A stretch of DNA of 64,000 bases. It comes from Azolla caroliniana (Eukaryota > Plantae > Polypodiophyta). Made by a program: the position numbers and the translations under genes. The stretch lies in NCBI GenBank assembly GCA_043228905.1, contig JBHGNT010000017.1, positions 11,842,001-11,906,000 on the forward strand, read 5' to 3'. The number at the start of each line of letters is the position of its first letter. Within the stretch, counting starts at the first letter, position 1. Below the pieces are notes generated by a model. It was not told the DNA's origin. It saw only the letters and a list, made by a program, of their open reading frames with translations, and made no database searches. Below, piece by piece: positions 4,350 through 44,900 of this stretch.

Positions 4350-4353
4350 TCCT

Positions 4354-4371
4354 TGGTGAACCCGACGTGAA
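4354..4371 (+). promoter_or_regulatory. Primer binding site complementary to the tRNA-Trp 3' end
   Basis: TGGTGAACCCGACGTGAA is the reverse complement of the plant tRNA-Trp 3' end (...TTCACGTCGGGTTCACCA), recalled from known sequence. Confidence 0.8.
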
Positions 4372-5719: not shown

Positions 5720-5803
5720 AGATACGAAACCCGATTCGGGCAGAAACGGAACGAGGTCGGTGAGTCCAGTGCCCGGGATAACCACAAGAAGGGCGGATAC
5801 CGG

Positions 5804-9400: not shown

Positions 9401-10576
9401 GATGTGGATACCAGCCGGTCTACATCCGGGTATGTAATGATATATGCGGGGGGAGCTCTTTCGTGGCAGTCGAGGTTGCAGAAAACGGTTGCATTGTCAA
9501 CCACAGAGGCAGAGTACATGGCGGCTGTGGAAGCCGGCAAGGAAATATTATGGATGAAGGACTTCATCGAAGAGCTCGGTATCTGGCAAGAGGAATACCG
9601 ACTCTATTGCGATAGTCAAAGTGCCATCCACCTTGCTAAGAATGCGGCCTACCATTCCCGGACGAAGCATATCTAGCGAAGGTATCACTGGATCCGGGAA
9701 AGAGTAGATGACCAGGAGTTCGCACTGACGAAGATCCACACGGCCGAGAACGGGTCAGATATGCTGACCAAAGTGCTGACACCTGACAAGTTGAACGCAT
9801 GCCGGAAGAAGATCGGGCTAGTAAGACACCCCATGCCGGAGTGAAGGGGGAGTTTGTTGGGAGACAGGTCCCTCCGGATGGGAAGGGAGAAGAACAGTGC
9901 CGATGAACAAACTCGGCCGAGGCTGAAACCGTATGAGGTGGACCCGGCTACGGAGAGCCGGATGATGCAGACCCGATGAAGACCGGATGAGGAGTACCTG
10001 GCTACGGAGAGCCGGATGGTACAGACTTGGTGAAAACCAGATGAGGAGTACCCAGCTACGGAGAGCCGGATGATGCAGACCTGGTGAAGACCGGATGAGG
10101 AGTACCCGGCTACGGAGAACCGGATGAAGAGACATATTCGTAAATATGTTTTCTGATAGTCCATCGAGGCTATATTTGTAAATAGCCGAAAAGTCATATT
10201 AGTATAAATATGACTTAGGGCAAACTAATAAGTGTAGTTGTCGTTTCTTGTTGGTGCAAGAGAAGCGAGAGTGCGTAACTGTACACAGAGAGAGAGAGAG
10301 AAAGAGGTCGTTGCCTCTGTTGTAACCGCCGCCTATGGCGAAGATTTGTGAGCACGAGGTCGTAGCCTCGGTGAACTCACTATTGTACATTCTTACATAG
10401 TGACAGTTTGCAGCCTGTGGGCTGCCGTGGTTTTTCCCCTAGTTTGGGGTTTTCCACGTAAACCTCCTGTGTATCTTCCACTTCTTTGTGTCGTGTTTTA
10501 TTTCCTGTTTTCTGTGTATCATTCTAAGCTCGGTTGTGGCCAAGCGTTGCGCATAAGGAGCGTTGAGTTCTCGTCA
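6443..10576 (+). mobile_element. Copia E, internally deleted, nested in gypsy D pol
   Basis: 722-bp LTRs at 6443-7164 and 9855-10576. tRNA-Met PBS TGGTATCAAAGC at 7167-7178, PPT GAAGGGGGAG, imperfect TSD ATTCG/ATCG. Removing it restores gypsy GRHSVQFLTV. Confidence 0.95.
7196..9844 (+). pseudogene. Copia E gag-pol remnant (gag, partial integrase, RT, RNase H); protease deleted
   Basis: Gag LLLLGSLPDSWE, RT LLYVDDML in the 528-aa ORF 8090-9676, RNase H ALSTTEAEY. Deletion junctions near 7893 and 8272. Confidence 0.9.
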
Positions 10577-10580
10577 ATCG

Positions 10581-22239: not shown

Positions 22240-22821
22240 TTCTCCTCCCTTGGGGTCTTATGTTGATTGTCTCAGCTAGGTGGCAGGCATATAACTATAA
22301 ACCATAGACCAAAAATTGGCTTCATCGGCTTCCCATTATGCACCCCCTGTAACTGCTCACGGAGTGCCACTCCCGTGATATACCCTCAGTCAATCTTTTC
22401 CCCTTCATATGTTGCTATGATGAACCCTGCCCTTTGTTTGGGCAAGCAATAGGAGTGTGGGCCGACACATGCAACCTCTAGTAAAATTTTGGTGACTTCG
22501 TGGAAAAATTCATCGATGCCTCCCTGAGTCTTGTATGCTTTTGCCGAAATATGACCATAAAACATCGGCTTCGAGAGGGTCCATACCATCATATCCTTCT
22601 CTTTTTAAATTCATAAATCGACGCAATTGTTTATTTGTTATCTTGGCGATGCCGATCTCCTTAATGATGTCATCTACTTGAGGATGTGGCTCGACATCTG
22701 CCACTCGAGGGTATCCCTGTAGACATTTTGATTCCAGCCATTGTCGCAGGCGGTTTGACCCTAGAATCGCAGCCATTGCGTCCTCTTCGAAACTAAGGTC
22801 GTTGCTATCGATGCTTGTCAA
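22240..22821 (-). pseudogene. Fragment of an unidentified TE-associated ORF family (copy 1)
   Basis: Frameshifted ORFs 22510-22821 and 22386-22592; homologous to the sequence at about 41140-41360. Confidence 0.5.
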
Positions 22822-23714
22822 AGAAGGCTTGAGTGCCAGTGTAGACTGTTATTGCTTGCTACGTGTAAAGAAAGCTTGAGTGCTCTGTGAGAGATTTGTT
22901 CGCGCTCTGTTCGCTTGTGAACGTTTGTGTTTTTCTGTGATATAGAATGTAGCTGCATGAATTTTTGGGACTCGATGGGCCAATTTTAAGACCAATCATT
23001 ATAAATAGAATATGCTATTAACTGCTCTTCAATGACCACCAATCGTAATGAATATTAAATCATGAGCTTGCCTATCCTTTTATAGTCTGAAAATGACGGT
23101 ACCAAGAACTAATGATTTAAAGAAGGCTTGAGTGCCGGTGTAGATTATTATTGCTTGCTACGTGTAAAGAAAGCTTGAGTGCTCTGTGAGAGATTTGTTC
23201 GCGCTCTGTTCGCTTGTGAACGTTTGTGTTTTTCTGTGATATAGAATGTAGCTGCATGATTTTTTGGGACTCGATGGGCCAATTTTAAGACCGATCATTA
23301 TAAATAGAATATGCTATTAACTGCTCTTCAATGACCACCAATCGTAATGAATATTAAATCATGAGCTTGCCTATCCTTTTATAGTCTGAAAATGACGGTA
23401 CCAAGAACTAATGATTTAAAGAAGGCTTGAGTGCCGGTGTAGATTATTATTGCTTGCTATGTGTAAAGAAAGCTTGAGTGCTCTGTGAGAGATTTGTTCG
23501 CGCTCTGTTCGTTTGTGAACGTTTGTGTTTTTCTATAATATAGAATGTAGCTGCATGATTTTTTGGGACTCGATGGGCCATTTTTAAGACCGATCATTAT
23601 AAATAGAATATGCTATTAACAGCTCTTCAATGACCACCACTCATAATGAATATTAAATCATGAGCTTGCCTATCCTTTTATAGTCTGAAAATGACGGTAC
23701 CAAGAACTAATGAT
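22821..23714. repeat. Tandem triplication, 299-bp unit
   Basis: Near-identical units starting AAGAAGGCTTGAGTGCC at 22821, 23120 and 23419. Confidence 0.95.
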
Positions 23715-25578
23715 GACAAGAATGAATTTTTTGTTATCCTTATTTTGCCAATATTTTTTTATATTTACGCTTATGTCCCATTGCCAACTCAATGAGTAGG
23801 TGGCGGATTGTCGGTGTCGACGTCGTGTCTAAATGGGTTTGTCGGGGTCGGTCCCTGATAAGGCTTGAGTCGGAAGCCATTGACCCATTTCGGCATGATA
23901 TCTCTAGTTGTAAAAGATAATATGCGGAAGCTAAGACAAACCGGTTAGTCTGGATAACAACAGAACACAGAACGAAGGTTTAATGGAAAGCTTGAATACA
24001 CTGGAGAGACAAAGAGAGTAGAATAGAAAACTCAATTCAAAATAATAACAGCCTCTATACATACAAATGTCCTACAAAACACTTTTTATACATGTACTTA
24101 AAAGGACTGATAGAAGTATTGACATGTACTTCAATGCTCATACGAGCGACTGACACTAACTCCAAGGAATATATCTATGTACTAGGCTTGGACTGTAGGC
24201 TCCAACGACCTACCGGTTCTCACTACTCTGGAGTACGATCCGATTCTCCAGTCCGGCTCTAGGTTCTCGATACCAATATATCCGGACACAGATCTGGGTA
24301 CATATCCGGTTCGGCATTCCAGATACCGATGTGGATACGGTTGCGCCTGCCCACTCAACACTCCCCCTCAAGCTGAACTGGAGGTCGGATCATTATGTGT
24401 GTCCACCGGTCCTTTCCTCTGGCTCCTCCTGGCACCTTTCCGCTCTGCTCGTGCTCCTTGACCCGTCTGGTTCCGCTTCCCATGACCCATCCGGCCCTAT
24501 GCACCTCGATCTTCTCAGTCAACTTGTTTGCTGATAAGGTCCTCCTCAGCTCCTTCGCTGTTGTGACTTCGGCGCTTCTCGACCTGTCGGTCCCTCCGTG
24601 TTTGTGTTGACTTCTGTTGCGCCCTCGTCTGTTTGTCCTTCTATTGATTCGGCTCCTCCGAATCAAACTGCTCTTCTAAATCGGCTACCTCTGATTCATT
24701 CTAGCTCTGGTCCGAATTGGCTGTCTCAAATTTGTCTTCAACCTTCAGGCCCTTCACCACAACGGATCACGTTCCGGTCTTGGCATTGTCGTTCCGGTCA
24801 GCTCTGTCCTTCATGACTATGCCGTCGTCGCCACTTGTTCTGACTTGTTCGGATGTCCCGACTTCTTCAGTCAACTCGGCATCCTTCTTCTTGTCTCCCC
24901 CTTTCTCTCCGGATCTTTGTCTGATGCCATTACCTTTCTTCCCAGTTCCCATTCCGGTTTCCTCCTTTCTCCCCCTCAAGTGCGGCATGTCAGGTTGTTG
25001 AAGACCAAGCATCTCCAAAAAATGCTGCAACTTGTCAAGGTCGAGAGGTTTGGTGAACATAAACAAGTTTGACTTCATAAGAGAGGACACACTCACGGAC
25101 GAAATGGTAGTGCACCTCAATGTTCTTTGTCCGGGCATGAAAAACGAGGTTCTTCGCCAGTTGGATGTCTGTTGAGCTTGTCTAGTAGATTGTTGTCGGA
25201 TCAGACACCTTCAACTGCAGATCCTTTAGGAGCCTCTTGAGCTATATGGCTTTGCATGTGGTGACAGCCGCTCCTCGGTAATCGGCCTCGGTGCTCAACA
25301 ATGCTACTGTCGGTTGCTTTTTACTGCTTCAGGTGACCACGACGCTTCCAAGTGAAAACGCACATCCCGATGTAGACCTACGGTGGCCGACATTTCCAAC
25401 CCAATTGGCATCCGTGTAGCCGACAATTTGTCTAGCTTCACCGGTCCGATACAACAACCCCCTGACCTTAGTGTCGTTGGCGTACCTGAGTATTCGGTGC
25501 ACGCAATCAAGGTGCTCCACGGTTGGATGAACCATAAATTGACTAATTAGTTCGACTAGATAGCTTAGATCCGACCGG

Positions 25579-25613
25579 AACACGTTTGCATTCAGAAGTG
25601 GAAGGATCGCGCA
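25579..25613 (+). repeat. Left TIR of G
   Basis: AACACGTTTGCATTCAGAAGTGGAAGGATCGCGCA. Confidence 0.92.
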
Positions 25614-25961
25614 AAAATGGAAGGCTAAGGAATATTCCCTCAAATTTTGGGGTTTAGATACTCTATTCACAAAATGTAATGCTACCAGTATCACATGTTC
25701 TCAAAATGTCGTTGGAAAACCTCAAAAAATCATCATTTCCTAAACTTGGAAAAACGCTAAAATTATGCTATAATCGAAATGGTACAATATTCACTATCAT
25801 TGAGAAGTCAAGAAGTAATGTATTTTGTAACAAACAATGTCTGTACAAAGCAATAATATTTCTAAACATAATTTATGCATCTTTCGAGTATTACAAACAA
25901 CACTCTCTTACATTAGATACCAGAATTTCATTGAGTGTAAAATTTACAAAAATCACTCGTA

Positions 25962-28563
25962 TCATGATCCAGAGTCACTACTATAACTAATATACAATGC
26001 AAATTGTTCCTCGTCATCTTCAGATGTACCTATTAAGGTATTGTCTTCATCTAAAACTAGATGTTGACATTCCATGTTATGTATAGACGATCTTGTTTGC
26101 CTTCGACATGATACCCCTTGTAGAATAGGTAATTTCTCCTTGTAGAAATATTCGTAGCACTTCACCAATGTCTAGGCATGAAGTGCTACGAATATTTCTT
26201 TTCCTCTTTTTATTCCATCATCTGTAAAGCATGCTTGCCGGTAAAGGCATTTTTTTTTTAGTGTTGTACCAATGCACCTTTATAGACTGGATTTGGCTTT
26301 GGTTCTCATGCATCACCACATCTAAAACCTTACCAATCCAAAATTGATGTCCCAGCTCATTATCACCAGCAGGTGTAGCAATTAACATACACACCTTCGA
26401 TTCTTGCAAGTTCCCTTGCCACCTTGCTTCCGTTGTTTTTGTTAGCCTGGGCCCAACATATATGTCCCTTTGTGGTGGATGGAGCAAGCTATCATTAATC
26501 ACATTAGGTGCAAGAGGAGAAGTCTGAGAATTACGACACTGTTGTATATTCCAGGTGAAGGGTATTTGCACGGTCCAAGTACCAAGGACACAATTGTCAA
26601 CAATTTGTTCTTCATCTTTAAAGAACACATCCCACCATGATGTGTCTTGTTCCCCAACATACTTCTTCGCATTGTCAATGTGCTTGCGTTTGTCTTGCAG
26701 TGCTTGCATCCAAACATCCTTTGGATTATCAGCTAGTACATTGGTGATATCTTTCTTAGTCTCAATCGGCATTTTTCCTGCACCATAAACAAAAGTTGAA
26801 GGCATATGAAGTAGAAACTGACACCCGCCTTCAGGCTCCCATTGGGGGGAGGATGAAAACTGCTTTGCGTATAATAATGTACAACCACTATGATCATTTT
26901 TATTTATTAAGAATACGTGGTTGAAACTTATATTATTTAATGGCGCTAACACTTTGGCGTTTCGCTCACCACCATCGAATATGTATTTCTTGAAATCTTA
27001 TATTTCCTTCAAGTGTTCCACGATTGGGCGTGGCATATATGCATCACGAATGATGTCGAACAACTTAGGTAACGTAAAAGCATCATATCGTGATAATTGC
27101 CTAGAGAAGTTATTGAACATCTGATCGATATGGTCATGTGTGTGACCAACCAATAGAAAGTTAACTTTTACTTTTACTTTTACTTTCACCAGCATACATA
27201 GATAACCAAACACTTTAGAATTTTTGTTTTCCCGAGCAGTATTGTCTAGTTGAATATATAAAACCAGCGGCAAAGACTGCCCCCAAGACATCAATACTCT
27301 TTGAATCATAGTGACTGTTAAATGAGAGTCATTGTGGACATTTGGGTAGGTGACGAAGACATGAGGCTTCACACTTCCATTATAGGCTAAACAACCCACC
27401 AAGTGCATCTGCACGAGACAATCGTCGTTGACATCTTTAGGAAGACGTTTAAGATGAGGTAGACACACCTTCTTTCGGTCCATTCCATCTATCATTAAAC
27501 ACATGTACTTAGCTAGATTGTTTCTGGACTTTTCCCTATGGTGGATAGCTCTTTTTCGCTCTAATGCTTGGGCATCTCAGTGATCTTGTAACAATTTCTT
27601 ATTTAGCTCCTTCTCTATTGCTGTCTTTGCCCCTTTACACACGCTCTTTAGGTTTGCACATATTGAACAATATCCCAGAAGTACTTTACAAGGTATAATA
27701 ACATTACTAAAGTGCAATGTCCACAACCTTGTGAGCTGATTGTAGGTGACATACTTGTCGCAACAAGTTGACATTTCCGATCTATAGGAATCATAAACTT
27801 CTTAACGTGTATAATTGTCAGAGAGATGCAACCTACCGATAGTTGGCATTATCTCACAATTGAACTTGAAGTATGTCTTCATCCAGCAGATTGCATTTCT
27901 ACCTGATGCACCCTTCATACTTGGCAAATTATCATCTTCAATGGGATTGTTGCCATTTAAAACTCTTTGTTGCACTCTATGTAATCTCATGTTTCTAACA
28001 CAAAGTGTGATCTTGAATGCCACTCTACAACATTGTCGTGCCGTAAAAAGGCAATACTCGAAAGAGATTGAGATATGTGAGGCTTTGTCTAACACCATTT
28101 GTAAGTGTGTCATAAGATAAGTGTCTTGTTCATCACCATTGAGTGAAAAATAGTAAAATCTCAAAGACCACAAGTTTTGCTTTCCAATCATTGCCATACA
28201 CCCAACGTGCAACATTTCTTTTTAACATCTACGGTAAGTTGAGTCTCAGATGTCACTAAAGCAAATCGTTCTCGACTAATACATCTTGGCGCACATTTGT
28301 TCTCTATTGCTGGGTAGAAATACTTTCGGGACTTTGACAATCACCTACATTCTCTCACCCGAGTCCGTGTATGGGTCATACTCTGGAATTGAGAACTCAA
28401 GGCATCTTGTTGTATTGACTAGACTATCGGAGATTGTATCCTCCTCAACAGAGAAATTAGAATCTTGAGACCAATGGTATTCTGCTACCAAAAACCCCAG
28501 AGAAGGTGAGGAATCCGATGACAGTTGATATTCCTCAATAGAAAAGGGTGAATTAGTTCGCAT
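25962..28563 (-). pseudogene. Sola-like / DUF7869-type DDD transposase with in-frame stops
   Basis: Five ORF pieces (28345-28563, 27802-28215, 27577-27774, 26998-27504, 26218-26952) are all in one frame, about 780 codons. Motifs CCRVAF, CSIC, IDGMD, QLDNTARENKN, FLLVGHTHDHIDQMF. Superfamily assignment is from motif recall; the 3' end is uncertain. Confidence 0.8.
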
Positions 28564-29076
28564 TGTTTGAGGTTCTAATATCCTTTATATTTCACTCCCT
28601 AAGCATACAAATTGTAAGCCATACTTAAACTACAAATAGAATTCTAAGGAACTATATATGTATTTTGTATATTTTCTTATATAAGTTTTTCTATATTTCT
28701 ATTAGGTATAAATAAAAATTGATCACGTGTCCATGTGACATAATTGCACAATACCACTATCCTCACCTGATTAGTGAATGTTCTCAAAATCAAAATCATA
28801 ACTACTAGATCATAATGAACATATTACACATAAAGTATAAAGATAATCATTATGTTATGATAATAATATTAAATACAAATTCTAAGATAAATAACTAAAG
28901 GCACTATTGGCATTTAATTCTAACCGTGGTTAGTTTTTTAACTATGGTCCCTTCCCCTCCCATAAATAGAACCGACCTCTCTTTTTCATTCCCCACAGTT
29001 GAGTGTAACAACTCTCCAGAGCGCAAAAGCATAGACACGAGGACTCTCAAGATACGTCACCCATCCCCGAACCAAA

Positions 29077-32000
29077 TGATGGGAACTCAAGGCTCCTTAT
29101 GTCCAACACTCGGCCACAACCGAGATTCTTTACTTACACAGAAAACAGGAAACGGAAAAACACGCGACACAAAAGGAGAGAAGAGGTACACAGGAGGTTT
29201 ACGTGGAAAACCCCAAGCTAGGGGAAAAACCACGGCAGCCCACAGGCTGCAAACTGTCACTATGTGGGAATATACAACAGTGAGTTCACTGAGGCACCGA
29301 CCTCGTGCTCACAAATCTTCGCCACAGGCGGCAGTTACAACAGAGGCAACGACCTCTTTCTCTCTCTCTCTCTCTCTGTACACTATTACGTGCTCTCTCT
29401 TCTTCTTGCACCAACAAGGAAAAATGACAACAACAACTAAAAGTTTGCCCTAAGTCATATTTATACTAATATGACTTTTCGGCTATTTACAAATGTCGCC
29501 ACGATGGGCTCTCAGAAACATATTTACGAATATGTCTCTTCATCCGGTTCTCACCGAGTCTGTACCATCCGGCTCTCCGTAGCCGGGTATTCCTCATCTG
29601 GTCTTCACCGGGTCTATATCATCCGGCTCTCCGTAGCCGAGTACTCCTCATCCGGTTCATACCGGGCCTGCACCATCCGGCTCTCCATAGCCGAGTACTC
29701 CTCATCTTGTTCATACCGGGCCTGCACCATCCGGCTCTCCATAGCCGGGTCCTCCTCATACGACACTGTTCTTCTCCCTTCCCATCCGAAGGGACCTGTC
29801 TCCCAACAAACTCCCCCTTCACTCCGGCATGGGGTGTCTTACCAGTCCGATCCTCTTCCGGCATGCGTCCAGCTTGTCGGGTGTCAACACTTTGGTCAGC
29901 ATATCTGACCCGTTCTCGGTCGTGTGGATCTTCGTCAGTGCGAACTCCTGGTCATCTACTCTTTCCCGGATCCAGTGATACCTCCGCTGGATATGCTTCG
30001 TCCGGGAATGGTAGGCCGCATTCTTAGCAAGGTGGATGGCACTTTGACTGTCGCAGTAGAGTCGGTATTCCTCTTGTCGAATACCGAGCTCTCCGATGAA
30101 GTCCTTCATCCATAATATTTCCTTGCCAGCTTCCACAACCGCCATGTACTCCGCCTCTGTGGTTGACAAAGCAACCGTCTTCTGCAGCCTCGACTGCCAC
30201 GAAACAGCTCCCCCTGCATATGTCATCACATACCCGGATGTAGACCGGTTGGTATCCACATCAGCCGACATGTCCGAATCGGTGAAACCGTCCAATTGAG
30301 GTTTTCCGGAGCCGAATCGGAGACACATATTTGCAGTGCCCTTCAAATACCGGAGTATCCATTTGACTGCGTTCCAGTGCTCCTTGCCGGGATTACTCAT
30401 GAACCGGCTCACCACTCCGACTGCGTATCCAATATCCGGTCGGGTACAAACCATTGCGTACATCAAGCTCCCGACGGCAGAGGCATATGGAATCTTCATC
30501 ATATCTGCCTTCTCTCCTTTCGTCTTCGGGCTTTGCTTGCCGGATAGCTTGCAGTTTGCCGGAAGTGTCGATCCGACCGGTTTCGCATCTGACATGTTGA
30601 ACCGGTGAAGCACCTTTGTCACGTACTTCTCCGGTGAAGCACCTTTGTCACGTACTTCTCCTGTCCCAGCATCTGTCTTGCCGGACCCAAGTCTTTCATT
30701 GAGAAGGTCCGGTTGAGAGCCTTCTTCAGCATTCGTATTTTTACTTGGTCTCGTCCGACGATCAACATGTCATCCACGTACAGGAGGAGTATCAGGAAGT
30801 CCTCTCCTTCGAACTTCTTCACAAACAGGCAGTGATTGGCCTGCGTCTTGTGGTACCCTTGATCGGTCATGAAGGAGTCGAACTTCCGGTACCATTGCAG
30901 GGGAGCCTGCTTCTGTCCGTACAGGCTCTTCTTCAACCGGCATACCAGGTGCTCCTTCCCTTTCTCCACAAATCCTTCCGGTTGTTGCATGTAGATCTCC
31001 TCTTCGAGGTCGCCGTGAAGGAATGTCGTCTTCACGTCCAGCTGCTCTACCTCAATCAAGGTCCATGCTTGTTGTTATACTCAGCACCATCCGGATGGAG
31101 GTCATCTTTACTACCGGGGCAAATATCTCGTCGAAGTCCACACCCTTCTTCTACTGGAACCCCTTCACCACGATCCTGGCTTTGTATCTCGGGGGATTGC
31201 CGACATCTCCCGGTTTCAACTTGTACACCCACTTGTTTCGGAGTGCCCGCTTTCCTTTCGGCAAGGCCACCAATTCGTATGTATGGTTCTCATGCAGGGA
31301 ATCCATCTCGTCCTGCATGGCACTTAACCATTTTCGGCTGTGGGTGTCTTCCTTCGCTTCTTCAAAGCTTTCCGGCTCCCCCTCATCGGTCAGCAGAACA
31401 TGCTCTGCATCCGGAAATCTCCGGGGGGCCCTTCTCTCTCTGAGAGGATATCTCCGTCTCTGGGCTTCGGTGACCGGCTCTTCCATTTGCTCTTCATCCG
31501 AATCCAATTCGGGGTCTTGGCCGGTTCCGGTCTCAGCTTCCTCTACTTCTTCTTCTGCCGGTTCGGTATCCTCACCGTAACCGGCTGGTTCCTCGAGAGC
31601 TAACCGGTCTCTTGCCGGTTGGGTCTGCTCATCGTAGAGTCTATCCTTACCGGTCGACTCGGAGTTCATTATCTTCTTCTCCGACTCCCAGTTGGCGAGC
31701 GTCTTGTCCTCCATGAAGATAATATCTCGACTCCGGAATACCTTCTTGTCGACCGGGTCCCACACTTGGTAGCCGAACTCATCGTCACCGTAACCGAGCA
31801 TGGCCGGGTCTTTGGATCTAACTTTCCTCTCCGGTCCTTTGCTACATGCACGTACGCGAGACACCCGAACACCCTCAGATGCCGGTAGGACACTTCCTTA
31901 CCGGTCCATACTCTTTGTGGCGTGTCTCCGTCCAAGGGTACTGAGGGTGATCTGTTTATCACATATGTCGTCGTCGACAGTGCCTCAGCCCAAAACTTCT

Positions 32001-33648
32001 TGGGTAGTTTTGCATGCGCTAGCATACTCCGGACCCTCTCCATTATGGTCCGGTTCATCCTCTCGGCCAGCCCGTTTAGTTCCGGCGTCTTCGGCACGGT
32101 AAATTCGAGCCGGATTCCCTTCGAGCGATAGTACTCCTCGAACTGCCCCCGGTATTCTCCTTCGTTATCTGCTCGAACCGCCTTCAGCTTCCGGCCGGTT
32201 TCTCTTTCCACTCTCGTGTGGAGCTCTTTGAAGACGGATAACACCTGATCCTTCGTCTTCAACAGTGTGGCCCACAGCTTCCGGCTGTGGTCATCTATGA
32301 ACGTCACGAAGTACTGCGCTCATCTTGGCATGACGGTCTCTGGAAGGCATTCATATGCTCCGCCATGCTGGAGCCATCTTGGTACCGAAGTCTTACTAGC
32401 TTCCGGAATACCGACACCTGATTGACAGCATTTTTGTTTTGAAACATTATGCCGATCTTCTCCCAGAGCTCATGAGCCTTGCTCTCTTCATTGAAGTTGT
32501 TGTACAGGCTCATGTCGATGAAGCACCGTATGTACGCCGTTGTCTTCATGTGCATCACCTCCCATATCGCGGCGTCAATTTTGTCCGGTCTCTTGTCCCC
32601 GAACTGAACCGGCAGCCAGAGGTCTTTAACCACGAGCATGTCCCTCATCTTCGACTTCCACACTGAATAGTTGGGGCCGGTGAGCTTGAACATGCCGCCA
32701 AACGATTCGTCCATTTTCTGTGTCAATTTCGCTCTGATACCACTTGACGGGAACTCAAGGCTCCTTATGTCCAACGCTCGGCCACAACCGAGATTCTTTA
32801 CTTACACAGAAAACAGGAAACGGAAAAACACGCGACACAAAAGGAGAGAAGAGGTACAGAGGAGGTTTACGTGGAAAACCCCAAGCTAGGGGAAAAACCA
32901 CGGCAGCCCACAAGCTGCAAACTGTCACTATGTGGGAATATACAACAGTGAGTTCACTGAGGCACCGACCTCGTGCTCACAAATCTTCGCCACAGGCGGC
33001 AGTTACAACAGAGGGAACGACCTCTTTCTCTCTCTCTCTCTCTGTACACTATTACGTGCTCTCTCTTCTTCTTGCACCAACAAGGAAAAATGACAACAAC
33101 AACTAAAAGTTTTCCCTAAGTCATATTTATACTAATATGACTTTTCGGCTATTTACAAATGTCGCCACGATGGGCTCTCAGAAACATATTTACGAATATG
33201 TCTCTTCATCCGGTTCTCACCGAGTCTGTACCATCCGGCTCTCCGTAGCCGGGTATTCCTCATCCGGTCTTCACCGGGTCTATATCATCCGGCTCTCCGT
33301 AGCCGAGTACTCCTCATCCGGTTCATACCGAGCCTGCACCATCCGGCTCTCCGTAGCCGAGTACTCCTCATCCGGTTCATACCGGGCCTGCACCATCCGG
33401 CTCTCCATAGCCGAGTACTCCTCATCTTGTTCATACCGGGCCTGCACCATCCGGCTCTCCATAGCCGGGTCCTCCTCATACTGTTTCGGCCTCGGCCGAG
33501 ATTGTTCGTCAGCACTGTTCTCCTCCCTTCCCATCCGGAGGGACCTGTCTCCCAACAGTAGCCGGATCAGTTTCTCTCATCTTGATGCTGAATAGTTCAC
33601 TGGCACTGTTCTTCTCCCTTCCCATCCGGAGGGACCTGTCTCCCAACA
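29077..33648 (-). mobile_element. Copia F (same family as E), internally deleted, nested between the two genes of G
   Basis: LTRs 29077-29808 and 32745-33557, plus an extra LTR terminus at 33604-33648. PBS 32731-32742, PPT about 29811-29820, TSD CCAAA/CCAAG. Gag, INT, RT and RH ORFs at 29819-32696. Confidence 0.93.
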
Positions 33649-33796
33649 CCAAGCGATCATCATGTCGAGGAAAAAGACTGCATGTTCTAACACCAGGTAG
33701 GATCTAAACCCTAAACTGTACGGACATCTGACTATCTACATACTTTATATTTCTTTTAGAATAACTTGCGTGCCCACTTCTAACTCCTGGATCCAT

Positions 33797-34540
33797 AACT
33801 CGGTACATCGTATCGAGTTATGGCTCGAAATCGGTACACTGTATTAACATGAGGGTCACAACTCGATACGATGTATCAAGTTATAGATCCAAGACCAAGA
33901 ATTCGATACAATGTATCGAGTTCTGACACTCAACTTGATACGATGTAATGAGTTCAGTGTCAAAACTCGTTACCATGTATCAATTTACGTATTAGAACTC
34001 GTCACGTCGTATCTAGTGGCTCCTAAGGCTAGAACTAGATACGCATAACTCGATACGGTGTAATGAGTTATGTCCCACAACTCGATACACCCTATCGAGT
34101 TGTTGCCCTAGGTGTCACATCTCGATACGTTGTATCGAGTTGGGGGACATAACTCGATACATGGTAACGAGTTGTGGCTCCTAGGGCTACAACTCGATAC
34201 GGCGTATGGAGTTGGGGAACATAACTCGATACACGGTATCGAGTTGTGGCTCCTAGGGCTACAACTCGATACGGCGTTTGGAGTTGGGGAACATAACTCG
34301 ATACATCATATCGAGTTGTGGCTCCTAGGGCTATAACTCGATACGTCGTATCGAGTTGGGCGTCTTAACTCGATACGGCGTATCGAGTTGGGGGTCTTAA
34401 CCTTATACGGCATATCGAGTTGTGGCTCCCAGGTCTAAAACTCGATACGCCGTATCGAGTTGGGGTGGGGGTCTTAACTCGATACGGCGTAACGAGTTGT
34501 GGCTCCCAGGGCTAAAACTCAATACATAGTATCGAGTTAG
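33797..34540. repeat. Array of about 21 palindromes AACTCGATACG-N-CGTATCGAGTT, spaced 32 or 40 bp (72-bp higher-order unit)
   Basis: Copies start near 33798, 33860, 33900, 33932, 33965, 33996, 34047, 34079, 34119, 34151, 34191, 34223, 34263, 34295, 34335, 34367, 34399, 34439, 34476 and 34516. The long spacer GTGGCTCCTAGGGCTAC is itself near-palindromic. Confidence 0.92.
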
Positions 34541-35030
34541 GGGTCATAACACACATTAGACCCAAAAAAAGTAGTAAAAATAGGTTCAAAAATTCTAAAT
34601 TAGGTCAAAATATGGTAAATTTGGGTCAATAAAGTTGATATTTAGGTACTACTAGGGATACCAAAATCGTACTAATTTTAGTGTCCGGTGGCCTATGTGA
34701 CGTTAAATATACATTTTTCCTCTGTCTAGTCCCTAGGTTTCAAATCCTCTTTCCCGCATTCTTCATGTCATTTAACCCCGTTACTAGTTTGGTACTAACT
34801 GTCACAATGGAATGAGGCCAAAACTATATTGGATTGCTAGTTTGGTGTTCCATACTACCAATCTGCATACTGTATATAATTTGACACCCCATACAAATCT
34901 TTCTCCACTACACTACTGGTCAGGCAAGAGCTTCATAAGGCCAAACTATTTTTTGTAATCGCATTTTCTAGACGACAATAGATTTTCATTTGCGAGAATA
35001 TAGGTTTAGGTTCATTTTTTGTATTATTTC

Positions 35031-38000
35031 ATGCAAGTCGACTGACCCTAAGGAGGAAGTAGAATTCGGATTAAGTATCAAAGCTCACCTCCAGACACCA
35101 CAAAGATCCCTATTGTGACATATACACAAACGGGAAAGAAATTCATGTTTGAAGACGAAGACGTGAGGTAGCCGTCTGACGAGGTTAGTCAGAAAACATC
35201 TGTTGCGGTTGGAGGAAGTGAGGACCAGTTAGACATAGACTTAATTGGATATGAGTGGGCAATGCAATATGTAGACTCGAAAAAGAAAGTAGTATTGTTA
35301 GTTACCAGACTGGCTGAACGTGGTATGCTTGCTCAAGATCGTGCATTTAGCTATGGCAAAATCTTGCGGCTGGACTATGAAGACACGGACTCAACTAATT
35401 TGATTGTATTAGTCAACTGTACAAAAGGAGTCCAACAGATGATCATCTCCGAAGACTACTTGTTGAAGGATTCATGAGGACCACAATCCTTCCGACATGC
35501 TATTGAGACAAGTACTAACTTAATAACAACATTGAGGCCATATATTCAAGGTCATGTTAATTTGAAGACTGCCTCCTTATCGCCTATTAAAGCACCAATA
35601 AGGAAATCTGTGGTGCAATCTAGGCCTCCAAGAAAGAAGGTGACGAGAATGTCAGATTCTGAGTCATTGAGTTCAATAGATGATGAAGAGGCTCAATCTA
35701 CACAAGGAGCAGAGCTTGGATCTGGTGTTCTCATCAGAACAAAATAAAATTAGAAGAAACATAATACATAGAAAACTTGTGCAGAAGGGGCAAGTTTTTA
35801 ACCTTCTGATAACCCATATTCATCCCCCCCCCACTGGATGAGAATATAGGACATCGCCCTTTGGAGATCAGGGAACCACATAAGCTGCATATCTAAAATT
35901 TAAAGAAGAAGATGAAAATCAACCCTCATGCAACAGTTGTGCCTTTTATTGTAATGGTGGATCCTCTTCAATGCTCTAAGCTAGAGCGACCAATACAATT
36001 ATTTTGTGATTGGAGGATCTCACTCAGCGGAGCCAAGACGACAATTAGTCCGCGAGCATCCCACAACGTTATTCTTCAAATATGTGGAATGCAAAATTTA
36101 TGTGGGGTTAACAACTGAGGAGGCGAACTTGTTAGCATGGGACCACAATAATGACAATGACTACCAGCAGAAGATGTCCTCCATCGAATGCATTAGATTT
36201 TTTCACCACGAGTACCTCGACGAGAAAACCAAATTTGGAGCAAAATTATATCCAGCTCTACGACGTCAATGTCTCCACGAAGTGGGAATTGTGGTGGACG
36301 ATGCGGTGAAGTCTGATGGAATCAGAAAGTATGAGCCATGGTTTCAACTCGCATTTAGGGATGGAGGAGTCTGGGATCTTCAAGATCAAATATTTACGAT
36401 GTGGGAGAATAAGGAAGTGAAGGGTCAAAGACAAAAGAAGTCAAAAGTTGACCCTCAATTAGAATTGAAGAGCTCAGCTGCGAAGAAGATTGAGCTTACC
36501 ATTGAGGAAGCGGCAGATGATATGAAGTTGTCTTTATGGAGGGCAATGCAAGGGATCAAAGATGAGCAACTTCTTATATCTGTGCTTTCAATAGTTCTAG
36601 GAAAGGAGCTGAGCCTAGAGGAAATGGTTACGGAGTTCAACAAGTAAGGTCTTACTAAATGTTTTATGGTTTATCTTGTTTTAAGAAATGAATTTTTAAT
36701 GTTGGTTTATAAATTTTCAGCCACAAAGTCTATTTGCAAATACAAGAACTGATGATGAAGCAACTAGGTTGCTTATCGTGGGAACAAGTGACTGAAGAAT
36801 ATCTGATAACGTCTTCTTACAAGGCCTTATCGGAATATTTCATTGTATTTAAGGATTGGGTGAGTATAACTCTTTGTTTGATCAATTTTTGGTGGTCCAT
36901 CCCGTGTATCACTATAACTTTGTTGATGTCTTATTTTTTTAGAAACCATGTCGGAGTAAGAGGCTTGGTGAAATAAAGGATATACATGACTTTCCAATAT
37001 CCTTTCTTGTGCATCTTGAAAGGGCCAAAAAATAGAAGGATCGATGCTTGGTAAGGGCGTTTGAGGTGGAAGATGACGGCACCTTCAAGAAGTTCCCCCA
37101 CAAATAAGACATCACCAGAGATCTGTACTACAATGTTTATTGTGGTGATGTGGCTGACATGATCCAGAAGCTACCAAAGAAAGAGTATACGTTAATGGTA
37201 GCTGATATTCCATACGGTTTTCGTATAGCTAGTTCAATCTACGATGATGAACCTTTTAGGTTCAAGCAGTTGGAAAAAATGGTAAAAGATTTCGCTGACT
37301 TGACCACCGCTTCCTTGTGGAGAATTGTAATATTTCATACCATGGATCAGGGACATTCCGTGGCTCAAGCGTTGAGATCTCATTGTCATTGAATTGAGAA
37401 CCTTGCTTGTTAAGGATTTTATCGAAAGCACTGTATTTCAATAGGAATTATATATTCTAATTTAAACTGCTTATAACTTTTTTCTCAATGATCAAGATTA
37501 AAACCAACGTAAATAGGGGACCGACTTTTCGGTGCATCAATGCAATGGAATATATAACAATTGGTTATTATGACGAGATCAAGAAGCAAAGAATCAAGGA
37601 GCATTCGAATGAGGTAAGATGCTCAAACCTGCTTGTATATCCAGCCGTGACACGGAAGCTTCGACATGTGACCACGACTAAGCGCGGGCTTGTGAATCCC
37701 TACCAGAAGCCCCAACGTTTAATGATGCGCCTTGTGGAGATGTTTTTGAATGAAGATGACTGGATATTGGACTTGTTTTCTAGCACAGGTAAATGGTCGA
37801 ATAATTTTCCCAATGTGTTGAAGGTTTTATTTATATTTAGACCTATGATAATACTCATTATTTCTTATTTATGGTGTTTAGGCACCACTTCGGCATGTGC
37901 TTTGAAGCTTTTCCGAAATTCGGTCGCATTGGAGAAAGATGAGGAGCAGGTGAACTTCATCAAGATGAGGCTTCGCGCGCTTTGGAAATGCCCCGATCAA

Positions 38001-38237
38001 GATGAGGAGGTAGGGGCCAAACATATGGCAGATACCGAACGTTTTCAGCCTACCTCCCGTGAACCGATCCCTCCTTTGGCTAGTGAACCTGGGGAACTCA
38101 TAAAGCTTGACGATGACTTAACAGAGGACCCCACGGTAGCGAGTCTATCTGGAGTGGATACTACTACACTAAATGTGGATGATAGTTCACCGATTGATGA
38201 TGAATCCAATGATATGGATACTCTCCTAGCGATGTAG
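35031..38237 (+). pseudogene. Multi-exon gene fusing a ParB-like domain to a beta-class N6A/N4C DNA methyltransferase; degenerate
   Basis: ParB-like region about 35850-36170 (EIREP..., YNYFVIGGSHSAEPRRQL...EEANLLAWDHNN). MTase VYCGDVADMIQKLPKKEYTLMVADIPYG (motif IV at 37204-37215), then NPYQKPQRLMMRLVEMFLNEDDWILDLFSSTGTTSACALKLFRNSVALEKD after splicing. Introns 36644-36720, 36860-36942, about 37410-37488 (degenerate) and 37789-37881. The 5' end is uncertain. Confidence 0.85.
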
Positions 38238-39369
38238 TTAGAGTTTATAAAAAAACTTTTAATGTATTTACTTCTGATCAAAGATCTTTTAATCAATTCT
38301 ATTTCTTAATATGATCCAATTTATTTGTTTATATGGTGTTATATTATGTTTTAATTAATGTGTTGCTATGTTTATATCTTGTGGCACATATTTATTAAAT
38401 TTGTTGGACTATCATCTAAGTATATAGTTAAGATCAAAGAAAATGTATGTTCATTCTTCATATTTACCCATCAATTGTGTTTATAAAACTTAGTTCCATG
38501 TTTGCTATTGCCAATCACTTTTTGAATTTATTATACTTATAGAATAATTATGATAAATAACATTTAGTGGGATTGAAGGAGGCATTTGTAGATATTGGGG
38601 AGTATTTGCTTTATTAGAGGGGATTGTACAACAATAATCATGTTTCTATGGTTAATGGTTGTCTGGACTAGATGTATGGAGGGCTATCAATGTGTGATCT
38701 GTATAGATTATTATTACTCCATTTGTATATATGTGTTTAACCTCTTGATTTAGTGTTTATGTGTAGACAATGAAATGAAATTTTTTATACATGCTTTAAT
38801 GTTAATACCGGAGAGTTATCTCTATTATGGCATCCAAAAATTTAGGATTGCCTATACCTTAATAATAGTCATATATGTTATGTAAACTAATAGCTATGAG
38901 TACACTTTTGTACTTCTAATTTTCATGTGTTGTCATGAACATATACATTTGGTATTATATCCTAATAACCTTTACTAACTATTAGTCATTATGTATTGTA
39001 TTCAATAATATGTAAATATCAATTTCTCAAATAGCATATACACCTCTCTTGGAAAGTTTAACCACTATAAACCTATGCACTTTACATCTCACGAAAATGG
39101 AATTCCTATTTGTTAATGCTTTAGTCAAATAATTAATTTGTATAAAATGTGTGGTAAAAACCAACCCTAAATTTGTAAACATTGCAAGAATAAATCTAGT
39201 ACATTTATATTTTCTCCAATAAATAGCATATTCTCTTGATATAGAGATGTATCCGATTAATAAATCAATAAATTCACCCTTTGTGGTTTATCATGTGATA
39301 CTGGTGCACGTCATATTTCACAACAAGCTAAAATTGTGTAACTATAATAAAGGGAATCTAAAAGTGAAA

Positions 39370-39404
39370 TGCGCGATCCTTCCACTTCTAAATGCGAACG
39401 TGTT
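39370..39404 (-). repeat. Right TIR of G
   Basis: Reverse complement is AACACGTTCGCATTTAGAAGTGGAAGGATCGCGCA. Confidence 0.92.
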
Positions 39405-41134
39405 CCGGGTGATGGTCGGATATATGAGGCTTCTGACTATTTGTCGGAACCATGTCAGCTTGCATATCATTTCGGATTCGAGGCAGAGCTTCACATTCCT
39501 ATCGAGAGGAGTTGAGACGGACTTGCATTCTGTCATACCGAATTTGAAGAGCATACTCAACACATAGTCACGTTGACTTATCAATATGCCTTCCAAGGTG
39601 TGTGGATCACTTCGATCCTGAGGAAGTAGTGAAGGTCACGATGATCCTTCGTGTCAAACAATGCCATGAGTTCAGATTTGATGCGGTCGATTTTGTCAAG
39701 GTCGGCGCCGGCGATGACTAAATCATCAATATAAAGCAAAATACTTACCGGCTTGTTCTGACCTCGCTGGATGAACAGGGAAGAGTCTGACCTCGATGCG
39801 GCAAAACCCATCCGACGCAGTCGTTGCGTGATTTTCGCGTTCCAGGCACGCAGGGCTTGCTTGAGTCCATAACGAGACTTCTTCAGTCGTCAAACGGCCA
39901 ACATGTTCATTCCAGACTAAAATCCAAGGGGTTGAACCATGTATACTTGTTCCTCAAGATCACCTTGCAAGAATGCATTTTTCACATCTATTTGATGTAG
40001 ATACCATCCCTTCGCCGCTTCCACCGCAAGCAAGACACAGATGGTCGTCATCTTTGTGAATGGAACGAACGTCTCATCGTAGTCGATGTTGTGATGCTGC
40101 GTGTAGCCTTTAGCCACTAGTCAGGCCTTGTACCTGTTAACAGAGCCGTCGACATTGTGTTTGACTTTATACACCCACCGGCAACCGATCAACTTCACTC
40201 CTTTTGGTGTGTCCACCAAGTCCCACGTCTCATTTTCCATGAGCATGTGCATCTCTTCCTCCATGACCTTCTACCAATTCGGATCCTTAGTCTCTTGTGC
40301 GTAGCTCTCCAACTCAAGCACACCTGTCACCTTTGCCATGTACGTATAATGATGCGCCATATACTCATTATATCCGTACCGAACTACGGGGTGCTTCTAG
40401 TGGGTAGAGCGGCGCAATTTTTGCTTTGCCAATTTGATGGCCCCCTTGTCCAACTCTGACCTCTTCTCCGGAGTTCTATCTTCTTGCTTTCCGAAGTCAC
40501 TCTGATCCGACTCTTCCCTACCGGTGTCATACTCCGGCATCTTCTTCTTCCCTCTCTCTTTGCGCATGAACCGTCTCCTTGGTTCCTTGTGAGGGGAGAG
40601 CACGCCCAAGTCTTCGCTACTCGCCGGCTCGTCATCTAATTGACCACACTGGCTCAACCAATCCAGATTTGGTCCATTGATCCGGAGGGTAGTCGGACTA
40701 TCCAGTCGTTCGGATCCCGCAACACTTCCCTCTGTACCGGAAAGAGTCGTCCCATCTACAACAATCAACTCGGGTTTGGGTGATGCAAGGTACCAAGATG
40801 CTGATTCGTCGAAGACGATATCATGGCTAATTCAGACTTGCTTCGAATTGGGGTTCTAGCACTTATACCCCTTCTGCTCATTAGAGTAGCCAACTAGGAT
40901 GCACTTCTTGGATTTTGCATCCAGTTTCTTCCGCTTTTCATCCTGCACATGCACATATGCAATGATGCCAAATACCCGAAGGTGTGCTGAAATCGTCGAT
41001 GAAGCAGACGAAATAACGACTCCTGTTAATGCTCATGTTTTGTGATGGTCCTCACTCATCCAAATGGATGAGTTCGAGCCAATTCCGGCTTCGATTCTTC
41101 TCATTGGGGAACGGAAGCCTCTGTTGCTTCGTGA

Positions 41135-41957: not shown

Positions 41958-44900
41958 AACCGGCTCGATTGGATAGCAATAGAATACTGACATGTTTAAT
42001 GGAACCTTAAAAATACATGGGAGGTACAGAGAGAGCAGAACAGTAAAGTCAATTCAAAATAATAAGACTCTGTATACAATGTGGTCAGTGAGCACTTTTA
42101 TACAGGTCATTAAAAGCACTAACAAAAGTACTGACAAGTACTTCAAATACAGGAAACTGACACTAACTCCTAAAAATATGCCTACGTACTAGGCTAGATT
42201 CCTAGGCCTCTAACGGCCTACCGGTTACAATCCGATCCGGCTCTCAGATCCAACTCCTGGTTCTAGATGTCTATCTGGTTCTCCATTTCGGATACCGATC
42301 CGGCTCTAGCTTATTCAGCTCATCTGGATCCGGTTGAGCTTGTCCACTCGACGCTCCCCCTCAAGCTCAACTTGAGATCGGATCGTCGTGTCTGTGTCTG
42401 TGGTAGCTAGTCCTCTCCTCCGGTTCTTCCTTGGCGTCCTCCCACTTGGCTCACGCTCCTCTTCCGGTTTAGTTCTTCCCGCGACGCATTTGGTTCCGCG
42501 CATCTCAACGTTCTCGGTCAGTGTCTGCTCAAAAGGCCCATCTCAGCTCCTTTGTTGTTGCTACTATGGTGCGTCTCGACCTATCGATTCCACCGTGTAG
42601 GTGTCGCCTTCTGCTGACTTCTTGTCTGTTTGGCCTTTATTTGATCCGGCTCCTCTGAATCAAGCGCCTCTTCCGAATCGAGTGACTCTGATTCGTTCCA
42701 AGTCTTCTTGAATTAATTGTCTCCAATTCGTCTTCGATTCACAGACCTTTCACGACATTAGACCACATATGTGTCTTGGTCTTCTTGCCCTTCTTGTCTT
42801 TACGCCCCCCCCCCCTTGTTCGGTTGGCTCTAGCTCGAGCACTCCATTCCGGTGGCTCCCCCTGCGTCCGGTCTCAGCTTCTTCAGTTGTCTCGTGTAGT
42901 CTGACTTCTTCAGACGGGCCAAAGTCGAAATCGGTTTCTAATTCGACTTTTCTATCGTCTTTCTCATTCCTCCCCCTCAAGTTTGGCATATCGAGGTATT
43001 GCACGCACAGTGCACCAGAAATTTTCCACAACTTGTCCAAGCCGAGGGGTTTGGTGAAGATATCAACGACCTATCATTCCGTCGAAACATGGAGCAATTC
43101 CACGTCACTTGAGAGAACGCGCTTTCGGACAAAATGATAGTGCACCTCAATGTGCTTGGTCCAAGCATGAAAGACAGGGTTCTTTGCCAACTAGATGTTG
43201 CTAAGGTTGTCACAATAGATCGTCATCCGATCAGATACCTCCACTCGCAGATCCTTCAAGAGCCTCTTGAGCCATATGGCTTCGCATGTCACGACAGCCG
43301 CTCGTCGATACTCGGCCTTGGTGCAGACAGTGCTATTGTCGACTGCTTTGTACTGCTCTAGGCGATCGCGACGCTTCCAAGGGAAAATACATATTCGGAT
43401 GTAGACCCGCGGTCGCCGGCATTTCTGGCCCAATCGACATCCATGTAGCCAACAAGTTGTCCGGCTATACTTGTCCGATACAATAACCCCCTGTCCTTAG
43501 TGCCGCTAACATACATGAGTATTTGGTGCGCACACAAAAGGTGCTCCATAGTCGGATGCACCATAAATTGACTGATCAATCCAACCAGATAATTGAGGTC
43601 TAACCAGGTTATGGTTAGATAGATAAGGCTTCCGACTATATGTCGAAACCTTTTCAGGTCGCATGCCATTCCAGAGTTGGGGCAAAGCTTCACATTCCGG
43701 TCAAGAGGGCTCGAGACGGATTTGCGTTCTATCATACCGAATTTGAAGAGCATACTCAACACTAGTGGCGTTGACTAACCAGTATGCCTTCCTGGGTGCA
43801 GATCACTTCGATCCTGAGGCAGTAGTGAAGGTCTCGTAGATCCTTCATCTCGAATGATGCCGCAAGCTGGGATTTGATGTAGCCGATTTCGTTCAGGTCG
43901 GCGCCAACGAGAAGATTATCCACATAGAGCAATATGCTCACCAATTTGTTCCAAGCTTGCCGGATGAAAAGTGAAGAGTCCAATTTGGACGGAGCAAACA
44001 CCATCCGACGCAGGCTCTGTGTGATCTTCACGTTCCAAGCGCGCAATGCTTGCTTGAGTTCGTAGAGGGACTTCTTCAATTGGCATACCACCGATGTATT
44101 CCCTCCAGAATGAAATTCGGGGAGCTCAACCATATACACCTGCTCCTAAAAATCACCTTGCAGGAACACGTTCTTTACATCCATCTGATGTAGATGCCAC
44201 CCCTTCGCTGCTCCCACCGCAAGGAGGACACAGATGGTCATCATCTTTGCGACCGACGCGAACGCCTCATCTTAGTCAATGTCGTGCTGTTGTGGATAGC
44301 CTTTGGCCACTAACCGGGCCTTGTACCTGTTGACAGAGCCGTTAGTGTTGTATTTAACCTTGTATATCCACCAACAACCGATCGGCTTCACTCCTTTTGG
44401 AACATCCACCAAGTTCCACGTCTCATTCTCCGTGAGCACATGCATCTCTTCCTCCATGGCCTTCCACCAGTTCGGGTCCTTAGCCACTTCAGCATAGCTC
44501 TCCAGCTCACGCTCGGCTGCCACCTTCGCCATGTACACATAATGATGCGCCATATATTCGTTATACCCGTACCTCTTCATGGGCTTCTTCTAACGGGTGG
44601 ATCGGCGCAATTCCTGATTCGCCAATTTCGTGGCCTTCTTGGCCAACTCGGAATTCATCTCTGAAGGTTCATCTTCGTTCTTTCTGGAGTCGGATTCCCT
44701 CCAATCTAACTCGTCTCTGTCGACGGCGTATTCCTACATATTCTTCTTCCCCTTCTCTTTTCGCGTCAACCGTCTCCTCGGTCGAGTGAACACTACTCGC
44801 CGGTGCATCATCCGACTGGTCATTCCTACTCAATGGTACATTCGGCCCACTTAGCCAGAATGAGATCGGAGTCTCATCTAGAGTACCGAATCCTTCTTCA

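Follow-up and report, generated by a model that had tools for sequence, protein, structure and literature searches.

A decayed Azolla transposon from a Sola-type family with a conserved methyltransferase gene, a predicted ParB fold and a candidate recognition site

We analysed a 64,000-nucleotide stretch of the Azolla caroliniana genome (GCA_043228905.1, contig JBHGNT010000017.1, positions 11,842,001 to 11,906,000, forward strand), referred to here as the window. Between window positions 25579 and 39404 it holds what comparison with related loci identifies as a decayed member of a multi-copy, cut-and-paste transposon family with a conserved methyltransferase cargo. In this family, a Sola-type DDD transposase gene and a divergent gene for a beta-class amino-methyltransferase with a predicted ParB-fold domain travel together between terminal inverted repeats (TIRs) and are maintained by purifying selection. 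The family is a land-plant member of a two-gene design already in print for algae.

RESULTS

Two genes travel together in a multi-copy family

A metagenome scan with the exon encoding the ParB-fold domain (exon 2, Table 1) gave 182 confirmed stretches, the best 80 of which were analysed; the assemblies that hold these contigs have adjacent accession numbers and may represent one campaign on related hosts. Among these 80, every contig that extends beyond 1.8 kb on the upstream side of the ParB match (12 of 12) carries a head-to-head transposase gene on the opposite strand, at 46 to 91% identity to the pieces of the window's transposase, and a thirteenth contig contains a transposase fragment. 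Loci L033 and L036 are not among the 12, as their transposase lies beyond the right TIR and is taken to represent a neighbouring element or an assembly join. The loci were gathered through the ParB half, a sampling outside which members with the transposase alone fall; within it, the constant pairing upholds the earlier note's reading of the methyltransferase as family cargo rather than a one-off capture.

We found 25 intact relatives with the long exon, at 39 to 94% identity, including one annotated in Ceratopteris richardii, and the nearest named relatives of both the ParB exon (69% identity) and the transposase core (63% identity) are Ceratopteris proteins. A right TIR is present 0.5 to 1.2 kb downstream in 25 of 38 modelled genes, and the remaining 13 contigs end within less than 1 kb. 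For nine loci, trees of the transposase and of the ParB exon recover the same three clades with no conflicting splits, a congruence that shows linkage and not functional co-evolution.

The pooled ratio of nonsynonymous to synonymous substitution rates (dN/dS) is 0.030 for the methyltransferase domain (11 of 15 pairs estimable, the others saturated), 0.029 for the ParB domain (6 of 15 pairs estimable) and 0.045 for the helical region that follows it (5 of 15 pairs estimable), with values of 0.13 to 0.17 for the end domains. For the transposase, dN/dS is 0.12 to 0.13 in the three diverged pairs.

Element ends and target sites

The TIRs of the window element are identical at 33 of 35 bases. When the element and one CCGG are excised, the flanks join without a gap to 43331-43892 (78% identity over 565 bp), a paralogous retrotransposon stretch that serves as an empty site. 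Because the flanks align gaplessly across this junction, the ends and the 4-bp target-site duplication (TSD) are exact, in agreement with the TIR-bounded, CCGG-flanked element described in the earlier note. In three of four DNA runs, contigs (47, 37 and 24) break at exactly 39404 into unlike flanks. Without a nested copia retrotransposon the window element is about 9.2 kb long, and relatives span positions 180-7773 in L028, 698-8421 in L026 and 3147-10951 in L050.

All family TIRs found start with AAC or ACC, and both TIRs are visible in four relative contigs. In L026 the element is flanked by a TGTT duplication, and its excision restores one continuous 360-codon frame. The flanking 4-mers of L028, L050 and L056 do not match, possibly because these are collapsed assemblies that join different copies. 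We rejected CCGG as a preferred target, since the 36 flanking 4-mers are diverse (27% GC) and none is CCGG.

Contig depth summed at 25625, beside the left TIR, was several-fold to about ten-fold gene depth in runs X8, X9, X11 and X13; as depth is not a copy number, this hints weakly at numerous derivatives that bear the TIRs and are non-autonomous or more diverged. TIRs of sister families were also seen inside or beside other members (L009 at 3280, L033 at 3960, L036 at 4040-6332), as nested or tandem insertions or assembly joins.

A Sola-type transposase gene

The transposase piece at 27001-27576 matches DUF7869 (E 8e-43; Pfam, 13 window pieces scanned), and a DUF7869 match of the family transposase reaches E 2e-53. 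In intact relatives the transposase is a single open reading frame of 829 to 916 amino acids. The window copy retains the acidic motifs DGMD (27489), QLDN (27252) and HDHIDQ (27138), which are kept in 9 of 9 full-length transposases; the three aspartates were assigned by motif. Sola DNA transposons have a 4-bp TSD (PMC10741241, in the text available), and the element combines this with a DDD transposase, TIRs and a size within the range we used, mostly 2 to 9 kb. Its likeness to Sola1 lies in the termini and architecture of Sola1-1_Ec32, a grouping by published description rather than by comparison with Sola1 reference transposases.

The C-terminal part of the transposase in L002 (387-900) is conserved and beta-rich, has no Pfam match and looks chromatin-reader-like by eye. 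A 56-bp near-perfect hairpin at 26144-26199 coincides with a deletion in the transposase gene and was seen in the window copy only.

A conserved, spliced methyltransferase gene

Homology-guided splicing yielded gene models for 38 loci (L071 gave none), of which 30 are stop-free and 35 share the intron phases 2, 0, 2 and 1; intact spliced proteins have about 930 to 1000 amino acids. The predicted short first exon (ATG...CAG/GT, phase-2 donor) was present in 10 of 10 loci examined. Across the 38 models, DIPYG is kept in 37, YQKP in 36, FSGTG in 33 and GGSHS in all 38. The region 37461-38234 matches N6_N4_Mtase (PF01555) at E 4e-9, above the Pfam cut-off, and motif IV precedes motif I, so the motif order from DIPY through QKP to motif I that the earlier note had read as beta class holds. 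The opposite-strand PF01555 and DUF7869 matches likewise bear out its minus-strand DDD transposase with a divergent second gene. The methyltransferase of an intronless relative matches CcrM, M.BceJIV and M.RsrI by Foldseek (E 5e-7 to 5e-6, with a mean predicted local distance difference test [pLDDT] score of 37 for the model), and the AlphaFold model of the methyltransferase P0094 is poor.

The N-terminal half of the protein is predicted to contain a ParB/sulfiredoxin-fold domain. In the AlphaFold model of exon 2 (P0002, mean pLDDT 68), Foldseek ranks 1 to 11 are all ParB or Noc chains (best E 4e-5), followed by sulfiredoxins. With VIA, the same model matches PadC (Z 9.6, root mean square deviation [rmsd] 2.6, 95 aligned), KorB (Z 8.3, rmsd 13.7, 172 aligned) and pNOB8 ParB (Z 8.0, rmsd 4.7, 208 aligned), and the latter two alignments reach over the helical region, which occupies the place of the DNA-binding domain of ParB. 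The earlier note's ParB label thus stands by fold but not by Pfam, in which no ParB match was found among 21 members. The ParB box reads GGNHS or GGGHS/T in distant members, and the Atlas position of the domain is near eukaryotic clusters (sponge, mollusc and fungal DUF3723).

Ahead of the ParB domain, a small beta domain (P0002 residues 37-158, about 35200-35560) weakly matches PH folds and the SANTA domain of M18BP1 (Z 6.0, rmsd 4.2). Judged from this model, it could be a chromatin-reading module.

A phased palindrome array in intron 1

Intron 1 of the methyltransferase gene contains an array of 15-bp palindromes (Table 1), most of which sit within AANT...ANTT arms; their 3-bp centre is free to vary, and the spacers between them have diverged. 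Neither this array nor the nested copia nor the division of the gene into six exons figures in the earlier note. The palindrome is present in 11 of 12 two-gene loci, with copy numbers at up to one mismatch of 14 in the window, 3 in L001, 9 in L002, 15 in L024, 5 in L026, 10 in L031, 15 in L040, 5 in L047, 2 in L050 and 11 in L054; L056 has none and carries an internal deletion at that place. The whole 64-kb window has 15 matches, 14 of them in 33801-34520, and across loci we counted 95 matches in 43.8 kb upstream of exon 2 versus 2 in 164 kb downstream. The core is kept, and the sequence around it diverges.

Spacings between neighbouring copies group at 31 to 34, 40 to 43, 50 to 54, 63, 72, 81, 90 and 105 bp, and the 18 distinct spacings lie close to multiples of some 10.4 bp (p 6e-4 for a period of 10.5 bp, with seven periods tried). 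Phasing is seen at 10.2 to 10.5 bp (mean cosine 0.45 to 0.52, p 2e-4 to 6e-4) and not at 10.0 or 11 bp. Two-fold symmetry around a variable centre, together with phased spacing, is the pattern that selection by a DNA-binding dimer produces, and the ParB-fold protein encoded around the array would be the simplest candidate binder.

An 11-bp motif with a TGTACGGACA core lies at 33717-33727, 15 to 35 bp inside intron 1. It is kept in L001, L002, L024, L026, L031, L040, L047, L050 and L054, was not seen in L028 or L029, and could act as a splicing signal or offer another site for binding.

Decay of the window copy

The window copy is inactivated by stops, frameshifts, lost splice signals and a nested copia long terminal repeat (LTR) retrotransposon, as the earlier note had described for its stops and frameshifts. 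The transposase gene has in-frame stops, frameshifts and deletions. In the methyltransferase gene, exon 2 has a stop, 2-bp and 20-bp deletions and a 1-bp insertion, exon 4 has three in-frame stops, and motif I in exon 5 reads FSSTG (G to S) versus FSGTG in intact relatives. Three splice signals are lost, namely the intron 1 acceptor, the donor after exon 4 and the acceptor of exon 5. The copia element is inserted 13 bp ahead of the methyltransferase start codon; its 5-bp flanks match at 4 of 5 positions, and its LTRs are about 97.5% alike and contain 54-bp tandem repeats. It is young and no part of the transposon family. A related copia copy lies inverted at about 6443-10582, and a 299-bp unit in three tandem copies lies outside the transposon at 22820-23716.

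Compared with intact relatives, C-to-T decay in the two genes affects 17 of 104 and 19 of 130 CG sites, 8 of 82 and 17 of 100 CHG sites, and 10 of 553 and 29 of 732 CHH sites. The CHH values (2 to 4%) are far below those for CG (15 to 16%) and CHG (10 to 17%), a bias that reads as the signature of host 5-methylcytosine (5mC).

Distribution of related methyltransferases

A profile of the intronless sister clade (P0091-P0107) gave 1260 representatives at E <=0.001. Among 149 that were examined, 17 also match the ParB-exon profile, and 10 that were looked up include three from Chara braunii and one from Ginkgo biloba. Motif IV has the form D-x-P-Y/F/W/H in nearly all representatives that gave a motif match (55 of the 149), and SPPY was found in none of those scanned. 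In a quick methyltransferase tree, suited to loose use only, the fern clade groups close to Ginkgo, and Chara falls outside. The Diphasiastrum complanatum protein P0090 (KAJ7514498.1), in which a cytochrome P450 is joined to one exon of the family methyltransferase, is probably an annotation chimera. P0152, P0173 and P0256 are intronless methyltransferases of 900 to 1000 amino acids with DLPY or DPPY on 3- to 10-kb contigs; two match the ParB-exon profile, and the three are possibly algal or protist members.

We found no close prokaryotic donor in GTDB, viral contigs, phages or PHROGs. Viral contigs contained no relative of the ParB exon, GTDB genomes gave two matches of only 23 to 31 residues, phages gave 183 records with 20 to 25% identity among the matches listed, and PHROGs matched the methyltransferase half and no other part.

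Table 1. Features of the Azolla element in window coordinates
Feature	Positions	Strand	Basis
Left TSD copy, CCGG	25575..25578	.	Empty-site alignment to 43331-43892
Left TIR, 35 bp, starts AACAC	25579..25613	+	Pairwise TIR comparison
Sola-type DDD transposase gene (DUF7869), degraded; 5' end approximate	25962..28584	-	Pfam and intact relatives
Inter-gene region of the divergent genes, with TATA-like box at ~28960 and methyltransferase 5' leader	28585..29076	.	TATA-like box and leader upstream of relatives' exon 1
Nested copia LTR retrotransposon, 4.6 kb	29077..33648	-	Internal comparison; absent from L002
Predicted exon 1, 11 codons, basic, phase-2 donor	33662..33696	+	Short ATG...CAG/GT exon in relatives
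Predicted intron 1 of methyltransferase gene	33697-35036	+	Exon models
Palindrome array, core CGATRC-N3-GYATCG, 14 copies at <=1 mismatch	33797..34538	.	Motif scan, within intron 1
Exon 2: small beta domain, predicted ParB/sulfiredoxin-fold domain (GGSHS at 36012), helical region	35037..36643	+	AlphaFold model and relatives
Exon 3, linker	36721..36859	+	Splice models; Ceratopteris KAH6555676.1 match
Exon 4, motif IV DIPY at 37204	36943..37409	+	Splice models
Exon 5, QKP at 37704 and motif I start at 37776	37496..37788	+	Splice models and Pfam
Exon 6, methyltransferase domain end and acidic tail	37882..38237	+	Splice models
Right TIR	39370..39404	-	Match to left TIR and contig breakpoints at 39404
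Right TSD copy, CCGG	39405..39408	.	Empty-site alignment

DISCUSSION

The explanation that we favour, and to which we give about an even chance, is that the ParB-fold protein recognises the palindromes in the first intron of its gene, methylates adenine around a shared promoter and so keeps the element expressed. Binding, catalysis, the modified base and the effect we infer as follows. A dimer would read the two CGATRC half-sites, and dimers bound at helically phased sites would lie on the same side of the double helix. N6-adenine would be favoured by the D-x-P-Y pocket, and adenine methylation beside the putative shared promoter region, 28585-29076, would favour expression of both genes. The mark or the bound protein would hold the promoter open despite host cytosine methylation, acting in cis or in trans wherever a copy has the sites. 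The self-marking suggested in the earlier note is therefore plausible, with the palindromes as its candidate address.

Several observations weigh against this explanation. CTP-binding ParB proteins have a box that reads GxxR; the box here is GGSHS in 38 of 38 models and lacks this arginine, so a CTP clamp is doubtful. The intact members L028 and L029 carry one palindrome each and no array. The palindrome core is near-constant across clades, unlike the family-specific motifs of VANC proteins, and the transposase could be the palindrome binder. The window copy itself is silenced and gives no evidence of protection, as ordinary 5mC decay in both genes means that it was not protected along its length. 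Decay of CG sites in its palindromes (6 of 74) is not significantly lower than in coding DNA (36 of 234; p 0.12), in a count based on visual selection of half-sites from a permissive scan (42 of 62 rows, with 5 that had other changes excluded) and in which palindrome variants may be inherited. Finally, the available text of PMC8885841 reports that PF01555 enzymes switched repeatedly between N6-methyladenine (6mA) and N4-methylcytosine (4mC).

A rival explanation is a repressor that acts on the same palindromes in the manner of KorB. It would repress or dampen both the gene that encodes it and the transposase gene, and methylation would serve as a switch for copy number or timing rather than for anti-silencing. 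In favour of this, the sites follow closely on the start of that gene and adjoin the putative shared promoter, KorB is among the top fold matches, a single site would be enough in L028 and L029, and the window copy was not shielded from 5mC decay. We nevertheless hold such a repressor to be distinctly less probable, at perhaps one chance in several, since constraint on the catalytic domain (dN/dS 0.03) exceeds what a simple repressor needs and arrays of up to 15 sites suggest a gain from amplification.

Targeting could be the same and the product different, with 4mC written on or near the CG of the palindromes, where it would block host 5mC directly. Every half-site has a CG, both characterised eukaryotic beta-class enzymes write 4mC according to the published text available, and the CG sites of the array have decayed nominally half as much as those of coding DNA; however, this last difference is not significant, motif IV of the family starts with D and not S, and the top fold and sequence matches are mostly to N6-adenine enzymes (CcrM, M.BceJIV and M.RsrI, from a low-confidence model). 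We therefore consider a 4mC product rather unlikely.

Slightly less likely still is a role in transposition, in which the transposase or a two-protein complex uses the palindromes for loading or synapsis, and excision is timed by methylation that marks donor, replicated or newly inserted copies. Dam control of transposition of bacterial insertion sequences provides a precedent, and the obligate-looking head-to-head pairing and congruent trees are consistent with it, but the sites are central, within the methyltransferase gene, rather than subterminal, and few matches to the core occur downstream of that gene's exon 2. In Bostrychia, moreover, as far as the preprint text at hand describes, inverted-repeat arrays adjoin a ParB gene on an unrelated EnSpm-type transposon, which favours ParB as the binder. 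That a captured host or bacterial gene is hitch-hiking beside chance tandem repeats is very improbable, even though ferns are repeat-rich and slippage makes arrays. It is contradicted by a dN/dS of 0.03 where synonymous distances are saturated, by catalytic motifs that do not vary and introns that are conserved, and by a palindrome core that persists in clades whose flanking sequences differ.

The earlier note was not aware of a description of this architecture, which is already in the recent algal literature. In Ectocarpus, the available parts of PMC12477816 (2025) describe Sola1-1_Ec32, with an opposite-strand, 1104-amino-acid gene for a ParB-like and N4/N6 methyltransferase protein, and propose self-modification; the supplement gives AACCG termini and a 4-bp TSD and calls the gene Ectocarpus-specific. 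The Azolla family shares the Sola-type transposase, the opposite-strand ParB-methyltransferase gene, the 4-bp TSD and AAC termini, a likeness that rests on description and not on aligned accessory proteins. Sola1-1_Ec32 differs in its brown algal host, its length (21.5 kb, versus 7.6 to 9 kb here) and its 282-bp imperfect TIRs (versus about 35 bp), and the word 'palindrom' is absent from the main text of that paper. Self-binding was proposed for the Bostrychia Plavaka (EnSpm) elements in a preprint seen in part (bioRxiv 2025.02.11.637652), which, like the family here, are DNA transposons that encode a PF01555 protein and a ParB-like protein and have inverted repeats in tandem next to the ParB gene; they differ in transposase superfamily and in having ParB-2-oxoglutarate oxygenase and methylase-SET in separate genes. 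The self-modification idea was thus already proposed for algal elements in these two papers, in the text available, and the two-gene design is known there from a few sentences. We found no land-plant report of it in the open literature, a search outside which Repbase and most subscription journals lie.

Other systems share parts of the design. VANDAL elements are Mutator-like. VANC proteins of Arabidopsis bind arrays of motifs within the introns and non-coding regions of the elements that encode them and in this respect resemble the addressing proposed here, but their motifs are short, asymmetric and family-specific, the outcome is 5mC loss, and the text available describes no ParB or amino-methyltransferase domain (PMC5735166). 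The predicted fold of the N-terminal domain and the helical region that follows, together with clustered palindromes, recalls bacterial ParB, Noc and KorB, from which the family differs by the missing GxxR arginine, the absence of a ParA partner and the methyltransferase fusion. Marchantia DN4MT1 (preprint) and bdelloid N4CMT (PMC8885841), in the portions available, are also beta-order PF01555-type enzymes in eukaryotes, but they are host genes rather than transposon cargo, have no ParB domain and write 4mC. The proposal that such transposons were a route to these enzymes found no support, as both have SPPY and the family DIPYG (37 of 38), in a comparison by motif IV rather than by alignment with DN4MT1. 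Retrotransposons that carry an adenine methyltransferase (DAM) are associated with raised 6mA and transcription (bioRxiv 10.64898/2026.05.21.726589); they differ in being retrotransposons with an NPP-type Dam domain, and ParB, Sola and PF01555 are absent from the available text. Chlorophyte Dams fused to ParB and a helix-turn-helix sit in unpermuted group 2, and land plants have few N6A methyltransferases, as stated in the part of PMC4738411 available.

The algal descriptions are extended here by members that are intact and compact, by a candidate site that is defined and phased, and by a reach into Chara and Ginkgo. Ceratopteris is a transformable fern. Compact, intact and diverged land-plant members, the candidate site and the Ceratopteris relatives make the self-marking idea directly testable. 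If the favoured explanation is true, the family would give VANC anti-silencing a counterpart that works through a writer, and land plants a source of localised 6mA or 4mC. More speculatively, and in our estimate with no better prospects than the repressor, the family may represent a parS/ParB-like addressing system in land plants, in which the protein would load at the phased palindromes, spread, and write a heritable adenine mark that excludes host CG and CHG methylation throughout the element. The lineage of such a system would span charophytes to ferns and Ginkgo, and it would provide local, sequence-addressed 6mA in plants thought to be without real DNA 6mA, as well as a programmable one-protein anti-silencing tool.

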